Made by a program: the position numbers
Part shown: one piece after another, positions 3,001 to 9,000 of the stretch
Layout: each line of letters opens with the position of its first letter
Position numbering within the stretch: the stretch's first letter is position 1
Origin: Escherichia coli
GTDB lineage: Bacteria > Pseudomonadota > Gammaproteobacteria > Enterobacterales > Enterobacteriaceae
Strand: one strand, 5' to 3'
NCBI RefSeq assembly: GCF_016026235.1
Contig: NZ_CP065614.1
Length of the DNA: 64,000 nt

Positions 3001-6000
3001 TGTATGAACATGAAATTCGACCAGACCAGATTGCAACATTTCGTTCACTTCAGACCAGCGAAGCATAACATTATCAGCATTTCCGGTTGCTATTTGATGT
3101 TCGCAATCGCGATGAGAATATTCCTTTCTAGGAGAGTGACGAACCGGACCATTCCCAATAAAACCGGTAATTAAAAAAATATGTGCTTTGAGATTAAACT
3201 CTTTTAATAAAGGATATACCTGAAACCAGTTGTCAAGGTATCCATCATCAAATGTCAACATAACGCTTTTCCGGGGGAGTTTTCCGCCCCGATAAAAAAA
3301 CTCCAGTTCATCTGATGACAGTGTTTTCCAGTTGTTTTCAGCCAACCATTTCATTTGCTTCCGGAATGTCACGGGAGAAAGTGTAACCAGTCCGGGGCAA
3401 TGACTGACATGATGATACATTAATACCGGAACATGATTGGCTTTGAACAAAATGCCCCCTTCGTTTAACATTTAAAGTTTCTGGCACCTAGTAAGCAGAG
3501 ACAAAAGGAAAACCCAATAAAGCTGGTGCATTTTATTTCCAGATACTGGATGAATAACATAGCAAACCCATGGCATATTTGATATATTTTACTAAATTAA
3601 ACATCAACAATTCATAAACAATGATATATTATCATATCTTTTAAAAACGACTCACTAAGAACCTTGAGGTGGCACACTGAATTTGGCTACCTGAACAGAG
3701 GTGATATGTTCACCTCAGAACAACACAGGTGCTCCAATGAAAAAAAAGAATTTCAGCGCAGAGTTTATTTACGGGGTGACGCTTTCATTAACCTGTACAC
3801 GAACTTCTATTCCGGCATCATGACAGGCCTGCAGCTACTGCGCCATTTCCAGCGGATCGCCCTCCCGGCGTACCACCCCACCTTCTTTATTCCATAACTG
3901 CAGAGCATTTTTCTGATTGTTCCATCTGATTTCGGGGGGTATTCCGGGCAAGGTTGTTCAGTAAGGCATTCCTTCGTAAAATCAGCATGTTTTTTGCACG
4001 ACGGAAACCGGCAGCCATGAAAATCTGTCTTTATCATACTCTGAATCCTGACACGATCCCGGGTTATAAAAAATTTGCACAGGCTATTGCCACCGATAAC
4101 TTTGTTCAGGCTGATGTTCGTAAAATTGACACCAATCTTTACCGCGCCCGGCTCAGTATCCGGGACCGATTACTGTTTTCGCTGTATCGCTACCACGGTG
4201 AAACTATCTGCCTTGTTCTGGAATATATTCGCAATCATGCCTATAACACTTCACGTTTTCTTCGCAGAAACGTGGTGATTGATGAAGGGCGCTTACAACA
4301 ACAACCAGTGCCGGATCCTGTTGATATCGCGACTGAAGCGCTGACGTATATCAATCCGTCTCATGGGCGTTTCCACCGCCTGGATAAAATGCTGTCCTTT
4401 GATGATGATCAGCAGGCACTGTACGAACACCCGCTACCGCTGGTGATTGTTGGCTCGGCGGGAAGTGGTAAGACGGCGCTGGTACTGGAAAAAATGAAGC
4501 AGGCTGCTGGTGATATACTGTATCTCAGCCTTTCCTCATTTCTGGTGGAAAAAGCGCGTACTCTCTATGACGCTTCAGGGGAAGGGAGTGAGGTACAGAA
4601 TATTGACTTTCTTTCGCTGACGGAATTTCTGGAAACTCTGCGCATTCCGGAAGGCAGGGAGGTGACTTTCAGTGCGTTCAGCGACTGGCTGCCCCGCAAC
4701 AGGGCTATCGCCGCACTGGGGGCTGCCCATACCCTGTATGAGGAGTTCAGGGGCGTGATCGGTGCGGTTGCCTCCGGGAATGGGCCGCTGTCCCGGGAGG
4801 CGTATCTGTCACTGGGGATACGGCAGTCGCTCTATGGCATGGAGGACCGCCCGACGGTCTATGTCCTGTTTGAACGTTATATCGCATGGCTGAAACAGTC
4901 GCATCAGTATGACAGTAATCTGCTCAGTCATCAGTATCTTTCGTTGGCAACTCCCCGTTATGATGTCATTTTTGTTGATGAAGTTCAGGATATGACGCCT
5001 GTTCAACTGCAACTGGTACTGAAAACGCTACGTCATCCCGGTCAGTTTTTACTCTGTGGTGATGCCAATCAGATAGTTCATCCGAGCTTTTTCTCATGGA
5101 GTTCGCTCAAAAGTCTCTTTTTCCGGCAGCAACAGGGAAACGACACAACCGTTAATATCCTGCAGGCGAATTACCGTAACGGGCACCACGTCACTGCACT
5201 GGCTAACCGGTTGCTGAGACTCAAACAGGTCCGCTTTAGTGCTATTGATCGGGAAAGTCACCATTTTGTCAGAAGCTGCGGTCAGGCAGAAGGGACCATC
5301 CGGTTGCTGGACGACAGGGAAGAGACAAAGCAGGAACTGAATGCCAAAACCTCACTTTCGAATCGTGTAGCGGTCATTGTGATGCATCCGGAACAGAAAG
5401 CACAGGCGCGATGCTGGTTCAGTACGCCGCTGGTCTTTTCGGTTCAGGAGGTTAAGGGGCTGGAATACGAAACGGTGATCCTTTACAATATAGTAAGCGC
5501 TGCCCGGCAGGCATTTGATGATATTTGCGAGGGTCTTACACCGGCTGATCTTGAGGGCGAGGCCCGTTATTCCCGTCCGCGGGACAGGCAGGATCGTTCA
5601 GCGGAAATCTATAAATTTTTTACCAACGCGCTGTATGTTGCGCTCACCCGTGCTACACACAATGTGTATCTTGTTGAACAGCAGGTGGAGCATCCTCTGT
5701 GGAGTCTGCTTGCGCTCACGCATCAGGAAGAGCCTCTGAATCTGCAGGAAGAGATTTCCAGCCGTGATGAGTGGCAGAAAACCGCACATCTGCTTGAAAA
5801 ACAGGGGAAGCAGGAGCAGGCGGACACCATCCGTAGCCGGATCCTGCAGACATCTGAGATGCCATGGCAGATTATCACCGCAGAGGATGCACGACAGTGG
5901 AAACAGCATATCCTCGCAGGTACAGCCGATAAAACCATACAACTGCAGGCGCTGGAGTACAGTCTGATTTATTCCCTGTTCCCGCTGTATAATGCACTGT

Positions 6001-9000
6001 ACCGGGAAGATTTTAAGCCCACAAGGCAGCCCAGAACGAAGACTCTGCAGTTACTGGAGCTGAAGTATTTCCGGCCATACTCAATGAATAACCCGGTTGC
6101 CGTGTTGCGGGATATTGAACGTTATGGTGTTGATCACCGTTCGCCGTTTAATCTTACTCCGCTGATGTCAGCAGCCCGGGCAGGTAATATTGCACTGGTT
6201 CAGTTACTGCTGGAGCGTGGTGCAGATCCCTTGCTGACCGGTAATGACGGGCTGGCGGCTTATCATCAAGTTCTGTCAGCGGCGGTCAGTACGCCCCGTT
6301 ATGCGCAACAGAAAAGTGCGCAGTTGTATACCCTGCTGAAACCTGAAAGTCTGTCACTGCAGGTGGAAGGACGCCTCATCAAACTGGACAACCGGCAGAT
6401 GGCAATGTTTCTGGTGATCCTGATGCAGGCGCTGTTCCACACGCATCTGGGAAGTGCTCTGTTTTTTTCGGAAGCCTTCAGTGCGGCACGACTGGCAGAG
6501 TGTGTGGTTCATCTTCCTGAAGCGTTGCTGCCGGAACGCCGCAAACGAAGGAGTTATATCAGCAGCCAGCTCTCTCAACATGAAGTTAACAGCAAAAATC
6601 CTTATGGAAAAAAGCTTTTTCTGAGGCTGAACCACGGACAGTATATTCTTAACCCGGGGCTTAAAATAAGGCAGGGTGATGTGTGGCGCGCGGTTTATGA
6701 GTTGCAGTCACCGGAAGATCTGGGGCATGATTTGCAGACTTATCTGCAGGATATGTCACCGGAATTAGTGGATATGCTGGGAGGGAAGAAGGGTTTTTAC
6801 GAACGCAGTGAAAAGTCTGTCGGATACTGGGTGGGGGGGATCCGTCGTGCCGCTCAAAAAGCGTGAGGTTCCGTGCTGACAGGATGTAACCGAACTTCAT
6901 CTGTACGTAAGTACGTGATGTCTCCCGCCCACTTCTGGTTCGGACCACTGGCGTAAAAATCCTGCTCCAGCAGATTTTCTGACACGGGCAGGCCATGTGC
7001 GCGGTAACTGACCGGGCTGAACTTCCGGGAGGCCTTTGCCCTCAGCCCCTGACGGCGCAGGCTTGCCGCCACGGTTTTTACGTTAAAGTGGTAACCCTGA
7101 GCACGCAGTTCATCCGTCAGGCGTGGTGCACCGCAACGCTGTTTTGACCGGGTAAAGAACGCTGTCGCAGTGCTGACGGAACTGCTGACGAGGGCTTATC
7201 CCTGTCCGCCGCTGACACCACGTTCAACAGTTTGTGGACTGTTCGCTCGCTTCCGGAAATCAGGGCTTTCATGGCCTTTGCCTGCAGGTATGTCGGAGCA
7301 GGAGCTTGATGCCCTTCTTTACGGAAGTGCCTCCACAGTACCTGTCGTACTTACTGAAAGCACCGTTATGCCCAAACTCCCGGTGGTAAAAAAACGTCCC
7401 CGGCGGCCTTAATGCCAGTCAGTTAAGCAACTGACTGGCTCTTTTTCGGGGCTGTGGGGTATGAGGTAGCCTGAGTTTAACGGACACTCCTTCCTGAAAT
7501 AGAATGGCATCAGAAGGAGCTAATAATGAGCAGAAAAAACCAACGTTACTCTAAAGAGTTCAAAGCCGAAGCTGTCAGAACGGTTCTTGAAAATCAACTT
7601 TCGATCAGTGAAGGCGCTTCCCGATTATCCCTTCCTGAAGGCACTTTAGGACAATGGGTTACCGCCGCCAGAAAAGGGCTCGGTACTCCTGGTTCCCGCA
7701 CGGTGGCTGAACTGGAATCTGAAATTCTGCAACTGCGTAAGGCGTTAAATGAAGCTCGCCTTGAGCGAGATATATTAAAAAAAGCAACAGCGTATTTTGC
7801 ACAGGAGTCGCTGAAAAATACGCGTTAATCGAACAATGGCGACAACAATTTCCCATTGAAGCGATGTGTCAGGTATTTGGTGTATCCAGGAGCGGTTATT
7901 ACAACTGGGTACAGCATGAACCCTCAGACAGAAAACAAAGTGATGAGCGGCTAAAACTGGAGATTAAGGTGGCACATATCCGCACTCGCGAAACATATGG
8001 AACCCGGCGGCTCCAGACGGAGCTGGCAGAGAATGGCATCATCGTTGGTCGTGACCGACTGGCACGTCTTCGTAAGGAGCTAAGGCTACGCTGTAAGCAG
8101 AAACGCAAGTTCAGAGCGACTACGAACCCGAACCACAATCTGCCAGTTGCGCCAAATCTGCTGAACCAGACGTTCGCTCCTACAGCACCAAATCAGGTCT
8201 GGGTGGCGGACCTGACGTATGTTGCCACACAGGAGGGATGGTTGTACCTCGCTGGCATCAAAGATGTTTATACGTGCGAAATTGTCGGCTACGCCATGGG
8301 AGAGCGCATGACAAAAGAGCTGACAGGTAAAGCCCTGTTTATGGCGCTCAGGAGCCAGCGCCCACCTGCCGGGCTAATCCACCACTCTGATCGAGGTTCA
8401 CAGTACTGCGCATACGATTACCGGGTCATACAGGAGCAGTCTGGTCTGAAAACATCAATGTCGCGTAAAGGTAACTGTTACGACAACGCTCCGATGGAAA
8501 GCTTCTGGGGAACGCTGAAAAATGAGAGCCTGAGCCACTATCGTTTTAATAACCGGGATGAAGCCATCTCAGTAATACGGGAATACATTGAGATTTTCTA
8601 CAATCGTCAGCGTCGTCACTCTCGTCTGGGGAATATCTCCCCGGCAGCCTTCAGGGAAAAATATCATCAGATGGCTGCTTAAAAAAAGAACAAATGGTAG
8701 TGTCCGCTATTGCCAGTACACCTCAGTAACAGACCAGACGGTTTAAATGAGCCGGTTACGTTTCAGGTGTCTCTGGCTGGAAATCCGTGCGTGATTCGCC
8801 TTGCTGCACAGGTATGCATGTGGTTAAAATTTATCATACGCGATCGCGGCGGTTTTTCGGGTGGTTTGTTGCTATTTTTACCTGTCTGCTGCCGTGATCG
8901 CACTGAACGCATTCTGGCGGTGCATACAATTAAGATATTACGTTAATATCGCGAGGGAATGGTCCCCATATTCTCATAGAAGAGCCTCTGGCTTATAGCA

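Follow-up and report, generated by a model that had tools for sequence, protein, structure and literature searches.

Based on fold, motif and homologue analyses, the virulence plasmid pINV carries an intact and conserved gene encoding a 949-aa protein, in which an N-terminal RelE/ParE-fold domain is joined to an SF1A UvrD/Rep-type helicase core, ankyrin repeats and an α/β domain. We tentatively suggest that this is an autonomous motor-plus-sensor protein controlling a RelE-type, translation-targeting effector, i.e., a self-contained mobile conflict module for defence, exclusion or abortive infection. The gene was analysed within a stretch of 64,000 nucleotides of Escherichia coli DNA (assembly GCF_016026235.1, contig NZ_CP065614.1), hereafter the window. 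Although pINV is among the most studied virulence plasmids, this intact 2.85-kb gene has no assigned function.

The ORF scan revealed a plus-strand frame from 3954 (TTG) to 6866, and translation from the ATG at 4017 gave 949 aa, in agreement with the earlier note on this DNA. According to the homologue alignment, this ATG is the family-conserved start, while RefSeq annotates the TTG at 3954 instead. The motifs quoted in the earlier note were all located (GSAGSGKT, aa 146-153; DEVQD, aa 321-325; YRNG, aa 386-389; ALYVALTRATHNVYLV, aa 538-553). The GC content of about 50% proposed for the gene was also reproduced (0.48-0.53 across 4017-6866 versus 0.37-0.43 in shf-capU-virK), and the gene is compositionally foreign to the AT-rich virulence genes. 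The coordinates of the domains and flanks are given in Table 1.

Table 1. Features of the 949-aa protein gene and its surroundings in the window
Feature	Position	Strand	Evidence or remarks
IS911 (IS3-family) end fragment, upstream of gene	3665..3767		95% identity to E. coli DNA annotated as IS911 / IS3-family transposase
Native 5' flank	3900..4016	+	blastn vs E. coli chromosomal copies; homology begins at 3900 or 3946 by copy
Complete CDS	4017..6866	+	949 aa + stop; RelE-fold domain, SF1A helicase, ankyrin repeats, α/β domain
RelE/ParE (BECR)-fold domain, aa 1-85	4017..4271	+	Invariant K36, R43, R51, E69, H74, Y76, S79, F81
Linker, aa 86-130	4272..4406	+	Lower model confidence, pLDDT 57-83; short helices, bridges
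UvrD/Rep-type SF1A helicase core, aa 131-560	4407..5696	+	Motif conservation, helicase profile matches, Pfam matches
Walker A GSAGSGKT	4452..4475	+	Translation; invariant G146, A148, G149, G151, K152, T153
Helical hairpin (aa 583-609), then ankyrin-type helical repeats (about aa 622-775)	5763..6341	+	
Sole sequence-detectable ankyrin repeat, aa 708-750	6138..6266	+	Pfam Ank_5, Ank, Ank_3, E 7e-6 to 5e-4; PDB ankyrin matches
C-terminal α/β domain, aa 778-896	6348..6704	+	Conserved basic helix RRKRRSYISSQLS
Variable C-terminal tail, aa 901-949	6717..6863	+	Column conservation down to 0.21; dN/dS 0.24-0.81
Native 3' flank	6867..6886	+	Homologous to E. coli chromosomal copies up to 6886
IS3 transposase gene, internal fragment abutting cassette	6895..7223	-	92% identity to annotated IS3 transposase DNA

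The IS911-like remnant upstream and the IS3 remnant downstream, both noticed earlier, are real by identity matches; a minus-strand ORF (6854-7072) overlaps the IS3 fragment region. By blastn, the E. coli chromosomal copies share 89-91% nucleotide identity with the pINV gene, the homology extending from 3900 or 3946 to 6886. Since this span takes in the native stop codon plus 20 bp past it, both remnants left the gene termini unchanged, and the concern over an altered terminus or a C-terminus cut short at 6866 is removed. The pINV copy retains every family-invariant residue and is under purifying selection (dN/dS of 0.10-0.18, and 0.12-0.17 in comparison with the E. coli copies). In pINV, the native upstream DNA has shrunk to about 70-117 bp, and no sigma-70-like site was found in the native 5' flank at the scan threshold, so that the pINV copy may lack expression. 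The gene is a passenger cassette from an E. coli-type genomic island, now lying within an IS graveyard, and it is outside both the shf operon and the type III secretion regulon. A report on plasmid genes regulated by oxygen or FNR together with the T3SS regulon (PMC4229854) does not list it.

The N-terminal domain had been described as unrecognised. This was true for profile searches, as Pfam gave nothing for aa 1-130 and no RelE/ParE family in the Pfam, NCBIfam or PDB profiles matched the domain (one of 55 family members matches ParE_like, E 0.085), but not for the fold: the N-terminal ~85 aa form a small α/β fold characteristic of the RelE/ParE (BECR-fold) superfamily, which changes the most likely mechanism. 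In the RNase members of this superfamily, the catalytic or RNA-binding residues are basic ones on the sheet and a C-terminal His/Tyr/Arg. Across phyla, the homologue alignments show no variation at K36, R43, R51, H74 and Y76, and the domain has the lowest dN/dS within the protein. Comparison with the YoeB profile by hhalign gave E 0.3; in the hhalign register, which is without statistical support, R43 and R45 lie opposite K52 and K54 of RelE, and R51 lies opposite R61 of RelE and R65 of YoeB. As there is no profile link to the RelE/ParE families, the case for catalytic equivalence with the RelE toxins is drawn solely from fold and register. The five invariant residues appear to resemble those of an active site, and the domain may act as an RNase and target the ribosome. 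In the linker, F119, D123 and K124 are conserved.

An adjacent cognate antitoxin, as in the type II TA layout, was not found. Among the 74 loci there was no conserved neighbour, which indicates that there is no separate antitoxin; no neighbour family occurred in more than nine loci, and the recurrent ones were generic. A small PF27752 gene lies upstream in the E. coli and Enterobacter islands only and is missing from the window.

The earlier suggestion that an SF1 NTPase of UvrD/Rep type is joined to ankyrin repeats was supported. The full SF1A motif set (Q, I, Ia, II, III, IV, V and VI) is present, including Q132 (Q-motif), G146-T153 (Walker A), DEVQD (321-325), GDANQ (348-352, III), YRN (386-388, IV), KGLEY (480-484, V) and TR (544-545, VI), and its residues are invariant or nearly invariant in 60-70 homologues. 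The closest solved helicases to the aa 125-565 profile were Rep (1uaa, E 1.1e-8), PcrA (2.6e-8) and UvrD (5e-8); UvrD1, AddA and HelD were also among the matches. Over aa 133-553, Pfam gave weak matches to UvrD, AAA_19 and Viral_helicase1, as well as a weak one to UvrD_C, and the NCBIfam helicase scores were all far under the family cut-offs. Judging from its sequence, the protein belongs to the SF1A UvrD/Rep helicase superfamily and has intact ATPase motifs.

Ankyrin-like repeats had been expected at the C-terminus. Tandem 33-residue helix-turn-helix ankyrin repeats are indeed present as a short module of 3-4 repeats, but they do not form the C-terminus, being followed by the α/β domain of ~120 aa (possibly winged-helix-like) and the variable tail. 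Pfam gave nothing for aa 760-949. With a dN/dS of 0.09-0.20, the "sensor" made up of the ankyrin and C-terminal parts is conserved, and some homologues swap the tail for DUF1186+SEC-C, UPF0149 or further ankyrin repeats.

The pINV plasmids of S. flexneri, S. sonnei, S. dysenteriae and EIEC all carry the identical gene (100% identity in S. sonnei 53G, S. flexneri M90T and EIEC), and that of S. boydii has lost it; 124 plasmid records hold a copy that is identical or at least 99% identical. A homologue was found in ~2% of complete E. coli genomes, within integrase/AlpA islands (CP4-44/CP4-57-like), beside AlpA-type regulators, toxin-antitoxin genes and antirestriction genes. Some of these copies are frameshifted, as expected of a costly accessory gene. 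The Salmonella homologue sits in a tRNA-Phe island that also holds a P4-type integrase, and that of Nitrococcus in a toxin-antitoxin-rich island. The E. coli, Salmonella and Enterobacter homologues are co-linear over their full length, with the same length and end, and related genera have the gene alone in common, with differing flanks. The gene spreads horizontally as a single-gene cassette; it is nearly absent from phage contigs.

Full-length relatives with the same architecture, at 33-52% identity, occur in more than 10 bacterial phyla, and across these phyla the identity stays flat at 37-52%. The family (~650 clusters at 50% identity) is found mostly in free-living environmental bacteria, including Chlorobi, methanotrophs, Bacteroidota and Aquificae, and its architecture is rigid, with no effector swapping in ~200 homologues. 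A PADLOC-listed gene was within the four nearest neighbours at three of 13 loci, and known defence genes made up four of 50 neighbours, a count without a matched control. SEC-C or UPF0149 (YecA-type) modules, which bind ribosomes and SecB (bioRxiv 10.1101/2020.07.21.215244), are fused in some members or encoded adjacently.

Based on the above results, the following mechanism can be suggested for the conflict module. In the resting state, the RelE-fold domain would be restrained in cis, which would account for the absence of an antitoxin gene. The SF1A motor, together with the ankyrin repeats and the winged-helix-like C-terminal module, would sense or engage a nucleic-acid or protein cue and thereby gate the N-terminal RelE/YoeB-fold domain. 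Once released, this domain would attack translation by cutting mRNA in the ribosomal A site or by a related RNA cleavage. The autoinhibition, the trigger and any anti-phage or anti-plasmid phenotype are putative. The active-site-like residues, the invariant motor motifs, the order of effector, NTPase and repeats, the island-borne spread, the lone-gene status, the PADLOC-listed neighbours at three of 13 loci and the frameshifted E. coli copies speak for this explanation, and the SEC-C and UPF0149 modules point towards translation. Several observations count against it. Sequence profiles give the N-terminal domain no link to a RelE/ParE family, the rigid architecture and the conserved "sensor" do not form an arms-race pattern, known defence genes are scarce nearby, the PADLOC matches are generic helicase-motif ones, the pINV copy may lack expression, and the gene is lost from S. 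boydii pINV. In addition, UvrD-type SF1A motors normally act on DNA, an awkward fit with a ribosome-directed effector.

Some of the same observations would suit a translation-associated quality-control motor with no immune role, an explanation that we consider unlikely but worth keeping in view. The RelE fold, possibly non-catalytic, would be an A-site key by which the SF1 motor reaches ribosomes that have stalled or collided, or complexes of coupled transcription and translation, in order to clear or recycle them. A parallel is HelD, one of the helicase relatives that could be detected, which recycles RNA polymerase by inserting a domain into it. The strong purifying selection over the entire length of the protein, the architecture fixed across phyla, the ribosome- and SecB-binding modules and the few defence genes in the neighbourhood agree with such a role, and the conserved ankyrin and C-terminal part hints at a cellular ligand that is itself conserved. 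However, the sporadic, island-borne occurrence, with pseudogenes among the E. coli copies and only the gene itself common to related genera, would be uncommon for a housekeeping-type function. SF1A enzymes work mainly on DNA, and the invariant His and Tyr, as in the catalytic RelE/YoeB toxins, suggest chemistry beyond docking.

It is also conceivable, although rather improbable, that the protein represents a new class of ribosome-directed motor, in which the RelE fold docks in the A site and so brings a UvrD-type SF1 motor to ribosomes that are translating, stalled or hijacked by phage, where mRNA would be cleaved or stripped off. Such a protein would be a ribosomal counterpart of HelD, spread horizontally across phyla and carried aboard a Shigella virulence plasmid. 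We give little weight to a role in DNA transactions, in which the N-terminal domain would resemble ParE, not RelE, in its action and have DNA gyrase or a different DNA-bound protein as binding partner, so that trapped protein-DNA complexes could be removed or processed by the UvrD-type motor with the winged-helix-like domain.

It is very improbable that the protein serves Shigella in virulence or is secreted as a type III effector, its eukaryote-like ankyrin repeats acting in the host cell. The gene does share its region of pINV with effector genes, e.g., ospG and ipaH9.8, it does encode ankyrin repeats, and in Endozoicomonas the homologues have eukaryote-like genes nearby, among them CARD and glycosyltransferase toxin-like ones. 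The effector context mentioned in the earlier note nevertheless finds little support, as the family belongs mainly to free-living bacteria of many phyla. Shigella type III effectors are confined to pathogens with a T3SS, rich in AT and regulated along with the T3SS; the present gene differs from the AT-rich effector genes in GC content, is absent from the regulated plasmid genes of PMC4229854, is a passenger amid IS debris and is missing from S. boydii pINV. Finally, a decaying or artefactual ORF, made or truncated by IS rearrangement, deserves hardly any credence despite the flanking remnants and the short upstream DNA, in which no promoter-like site was found, being refuted for the coding sequence by purifying selection, the co-linear E. 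coli, Salmonella and Enterobacter homologues and the hundreds of full-length homologues (940-975 aa) with the same architecture, along with the complete set of invariant residues and the 124 plasmid records.

With the RelE/ParE fold recognised, a "hypothetical helicase" becomes a candidate toxin-like effector without an antitoxin gene, which a helicase motor and a repeat sensor would gate in cis. If active, the protein would provide a new architecture for multidomain RelE-type effectors and single-gene helicase defences, and it could influence phage sensitivity, plasmid stability and stress-induced growth arrest in Shigella and ~2% of E. coli. If the RelE fold is a ribosome-docking key for the motor, this would be a new principle. 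Because the family is so broad, such results would reach well beyond Shigella.

No characterised homologue of the 949-aa protein, and no publication on it, was found in the databases or literature. NCBIfam, PADLOC and PHROGs gave generic helicase or ankyrin matches only, consistent with the earlier view that it fits no characterised family. It is absent from PADLOC and from the survey of multidomain RelE/ParE toxins by Gerdes (2025, mBio), which never mentions a helicase (PMC11980606). The known multidomain BECR-fold effectors include Cami1 (CARF-RelE, type III CRISPR), fused toxin-antitoxins and PtuZ-type proteins (PMC11980606). In contrast to these, the protein combines the fold with an SF1A UvrD-type helicase, ankyrin repeats and an α/β domain and lacks CARF, antitoxin and PIN domains, and its N-terminal domain is missed by every Pfam RelE/ParE model.

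The kinship with UvrD, Rep, PcrA and HelD is very distant (E about 1e-8); none of them has the N- and C-terminal modules found here, and the gene is not a core one. Both HelD and the 949-aa protein have an extra N-terminal domain, which here could reach into another machine. Among helicase defences, the UvrD-like core gave partial PADLOC matches to GajB (aa 312-425, E 1e-11), AbiO (aa 300-434, 2e-7) and Nhi (aa 300-358, 1e-6), spanning roughly 90-130 residues around motifs II-IV. Gabija (GajA/GajB) was rejected, since the GajB match is partial and neither a GajA OLD/TOPRIM ATPase-nuclease nor another conserved partner is present. The single-gene helicase defences (Nhi, AbiO, Hna type) were rejected for want of a full-length match to a family model, although, as with Nhi and AbiO, the gene is single and on mobile islands. 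Unlike Gabija, Nhi, AbiO and DRT-associated helicases, the protein has a RelE-like effector fold and lacks a nuclease domain. STAND/Avs-type proteins have an N-terminal toxin-like domain, a central NTPase and a C-terminal repeat module. The 949-aa protein follows the same effector-NTPase-repeat order, but its NTPase is an SF1 helicase, whereas STAND proteins use a STAND ATPase, and its short repeat module is conserved rather than hypervariable.

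By its gene content, the window represents a pINV-type virulence plasmid of Shigella/EIEC, in which the gene is followed on its 3′ side by an IS graveyard (6895–9880). Its GC content is 0.48–0.53, versus 0.37–0.43 for the shf operon. The plus-strand ORF extends from TTG 3954 to 6866 and encodes 949 aa if begun at ATG 4017. The ORF and motif observation of the earlier note was confirmed, and every helicase motif quoted there was found in the translation. In RefSeq (WP_010921718.1) and in pCP301 (SF_p0234, labelled 'conserved hypothetical'), the CDS starts at TTG 3954 and has 970 aa. 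Since M1 is nearly invariant in the family alignment, ATG 4017 is taken as the real start, and the 21-residue N-terminal extension is probably an annotation artefact. UniProt/AFDB also holds short Shigella versions, F5NVN6 (646 aa) and A0A090NA64 (295 aa), under the names 'Ankyrin domain protein' and 'Ankyrin repeat protein'; these probably reflect fragmentary assemblies or truncation in particular strains.

Features of the window (nucleotide positions) and SF1A motifs of the gene product (residues numbered from ATG 4017)
Feature	Position	Strand	Remark
virK	583-1533	-	
capU	1538-2626	-	
shf	2629-3471	-	
IS911 end fragment	3665-3767		upstream of the gene
The gene	4017-6866	+	949 aa
IS3 transposase fragment	6895-7223		downstream of the gene
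IS66 tnpA fragment	7224-7413		
IS4 end	7410-7462		
IS600 transposase ORFs	7526-8682		
IS1 ORFs	9183-9880		
ospG	9895-10380	-	
YacA-type antitoxin ORF	10632-10922	-	between ospG and ipaH9.8; annotation in the compared locus L001; its toxin partner, yacB, is of the RelE/ParE family
ipaH9.8	about 11109-12776	-	
Q motif	Q132		
Walker A (motif I)	G146-x-A-G-x-G-K-T153		
Motif II	D321-E-x-Q-D325		
Motif III	G348-D-x-N-Q352		
Motif IV	Y-R387-N		
Motif V	K480-G-L-E-Y484		
Motif VI	T544-R545		

The gene is 99.9–100% identical across the pINV of S. sonnei 53G, S. flexneri M90T (pWR501) and 2a 301 (pCP301), S. dysenteriae Sd197 and EIEC. It matched 139 plasmid records, without exception from Shigella or E. 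coli, and more than 100 records have an intact pINV copy. In the pINV of S. boydii (e.g. NC_010660) and in some S. dysenteriae and S. flexneri plasmids, just the first 86–89 bp (window 4017–4105) are left, which indicates that the remainder was lost by recurrent or shared deletion. Among 5426 complete E. coli genomes, about 100 have a chromosomal homologue with 83–91% nucleotide identity. The window is homologous to these chromosomal copies from 3900/3946 to 6886; therefore, the cassette retains its own stop codon together with flanking DNA of 20 bp on the 3′ side and 70–117 bp on the 5′ side. Beyond this block, IS debris lies on both sides. Homologues of 940–975 aa can be aligned end to end with the gene product. 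The earlier worry that IS elements had altered the termini was thus refuted by the full-length homologues and the preserved native stop and flanks. An IS artefact is unlikely in spite of the adjacent debris: an IS-made fusion or truncation is ruled out by the full-length homologues and by the homology past the stop codon.

Pairwise dN/dS values against the E. coli, Salmonella and Enterobacter copies were 0.10–0.18, with the minimum in the N-terminal domain (0.03–0.11) and the maximum in the last 49 residues (0.24–0.81). Relaxed selection, considered because amino-acid identity seemed close to nucleotide identity, was rejected on these values. Two of the five E. coli chromosomal copies inspected are frameshifted; the homologues of E. 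coli 1105 (locus L174, 14001–16846) and LH50-c (L175, 13939–16846) are annotated as frameshifted pseudogenes. The LH50-c island (L175, 24071–28864) also carries a polysaccharide deacetylase, a GT4 glycosyltransferase, cptA and lpxM, a cluster resembling shf-capU-msbB2. Its shf, capU and lpxM homologues share just 68% DNA identity with the window genes, and a common origin with the shf operon is unsupported. The helicase gene and shf-capU-type genes are passengers of one island type, without sharing a recent origin.

Pfam gave weak UvrD, AAA_19 and Viral_helicase1 matches over aa 133–553, and every SF1A motif is invariant in 60–70 homologues. The profile of aa 125–565 matched Rep (1.1e-8), PcrA, UvrD, UvrD1, AddA, HelD, FBH1 and helicase IV. 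Judging from its motifs, the protein contains a complete UvrD-type ATPase. The NCBIfam scores for the helicase were all far under the family cut-offs. PADLOC returned partial matches alone, around motifs II–IV, to GajB, AbiO, Nhi and a DRT-associated helicase; membership in Gabija, Nhi or AbiO was rejected because the HMM matches were partial.

The N-terminal domain was recognised by fold comparison alone, every sequence method being negative or non-significant; its predicted structure has the RelE/ParE fold. Pfam gave no match for aa 1–130, whether searched as a single sequence or as 14- and 55-member alignments, and nothing identified or significant was obtained for the domain in NCBIfam, PHROGs or a PDB profile search. 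The hhalign comparisons with E. coli RelE, YoeB and a 31-member YoeB profile were not significant (E 0.25–0.3); their register was as expected, with LYRARL...RLLF opposite CYKIKL...YRLVY of RelE and FWSRRI...HRLVY of YoeB. This non-significant register pairs R43 and R45 with RelE K52 and K54, and R51 with RelE R61 and YoeB R65. Out of 1.84 billion cluster representatives, 645 clusters matched the profile of aa 1–132 at E ≤ 1e-3; the best 150 all have the same ~950-aa architecture, with the domain at the N-terminus, or are fragments of it. Across phyla, K36, R51, H74, Y76 and F81 are invariant, and Y42, R43, E69, S79 and R80 nearly so. The conserved 'NHxY' behind the last strand resembles the C-terminal His/Tyr of YoeB. 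From these residues, we infer that the domain may be catalytically competent.

For the C-terminal half, Pfam recognised one ankyrin repeat (aa 708–750) and gave no match over aa 760–949. The predicted model of aa 560–949 is confident (pLDDT 90.9, pTM 0.87) and comprises a helical hairpin, ankyrin-type repeats (about aa 622–775), an α/β domain and a long terminal helix. The α/β domain (aa 778–896) is modelled as a β-hairpin, five helices and a four-stranded meander, and includes the conserved basic helix RRKRRSYISSQLS. Besides the ATPase, the protein combines a domain of RelE/ParE fold, in which basic, His and Tyr residues are invariant, with ankyrin repeats and another conserved domain towards the C-terminus. 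The tail is variable, and in some of eight longer homologues other modules take its place: DUF1186+SEC-C (2/8; P0216 and P0209), UPF0149, the YecA N-terminal domain (1/8; protein P0095), and a second ankyrin module (1/8). DUF1186+SEC-C is also encoded adjacent to the gene in Endozoicomonas (L095, 13008–14009, and L010, 13873–14922, both on the minus strand). SEC-C metal-binding domains are SecB and ribosome binders (bioRxiv 10.1101/2020.07.21.215244). The SEC-C/UPF0149 fusions and neighbours may be a weak independent pointer to translation, and DUF1186+SEC-C, fused or adjacent, hints at a Rosetta-stone-type link to SecB- or ribosome-binding modules.

Full-length relatives with 37–52% identity were found at 77 loci in one-genome-per-species data, from Gamma-, Beta-, Alpha- and Deltaproteobacteria, Bacteroidota, Chlorobi, Verrucomicrobia, Nitrospirae, Aquificae, Deinococcota and Firmicutes. 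Among 2.9 million viral contigs, only two true family members were present, one beside a Mu-like prophage, and a phage origin was ruled out. Clustering of 1732 neighbouring ORFs from 74 loci revealed no neighbour family in more than 9 of them, and the recurrent ones were generic paralogous families (ABC ATPases, sigma-54 regulators, SDR, PAS kinases); thus, the gene has no conserved partner or antitoxin.

The E. coli copies reside in CP4-44/CP4-57-like islands, where an AlpA-type regulator and a small PF27752 gene precede them and the surroundings include YeeP, Ag43, antirestriction, RadC/JAB, CbtA/CbeA, Rpn, Afa/Dr or CdiBAI genes. The PF27752 (UCP030791) gene lies directly 5′ of the E. coli homologues (L012, 2518–3081; L014, 11374–11907; L015, 2992–3447) and upstream but inverted in Enterobacter ludwigii (L002, 7411–7719). 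It was not found in the window or in distant loci, and was rejected as a family partner, being island backbone. Elsewhere, the gene is carried by a tRNA-Phe island with a P4-type integrase (Salmonella Hvittingfoss), lies within a toxin-antitoxin-rich island (Nitrococcus), between tRNA-Met and tRNA-Leu (Endozoicomonas), or among ordinary genes (Halomonas). Among methanotroph genera, and among Chromatiaceae genera, the gene alone is common and the flanks differ. In Chlorobiaceae, a small HD-domain ORF (178–202 aa) lies about 400–1500 bp 3′ of the gene in all four loci (L154, L162, L166, L167) and moves with it between differing flanks; this ORF is possibly a partner specific to the lineage. When the 50 nearest neighbours from 13 loci were scanned with PADLOC, strong matches came from 3/13 (a raw count without matched control), namely PDC-S01 twice, a DUF262 type IV restriction-like protein and an RT_UG29-type reverse transcriptase; the proximity of such genes is suggestive.

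The gene is an intact, selected and horizontally mobile single-gene cassette with no antitoxin gene. An autonomous conflict or defence module fits best with the layout (effector-like domain, then NTPase, then repeats), with a mobile gene that has no partner and with its occasional decay to a pseudogene, and we favour it tentatively. In such a module, the motor and the sensor would gate the RelE-type effector within one polypeptide, and the effector would be aimed at translation. Against it stand the rigid architecture, the conservation of the 'sensor', the few defence genes nearby, the normally DNA-acting habit of UvrD relatives and the lack of a demonstrable link to RelE families at the sequence level. 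Two rivals therefore stay in play: a quality-control motor directed at ribosomes, which is rather unlikely, and a ParE-like helicase directed at DNA or gyrase, which is less likely still. A T3SS effector role for this virulence-plasmid gene is also unlikely.

Searching the literature by accession, locus tag and key words turned up no paper about the gene or its architecture, and no characterised homologue or named family was found. A helicase is never mentioned in the 2025 survey of mono- and multidomain RelE/ParE toxins (PMC11980606). PADLOC 2.0 is without a model for the family. As a kind of system, the predicted conflict module would belong with the multidomain RelE-fold effectors or with the single-gene helicase conflict systems. 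The structure of Cami1, the CARF-RelE protein of type III CRISPR, was among the fold-comparison matches of the N-terminal domain, and we take this large RelE fusion, acting on ribosomes, to be a precedent.
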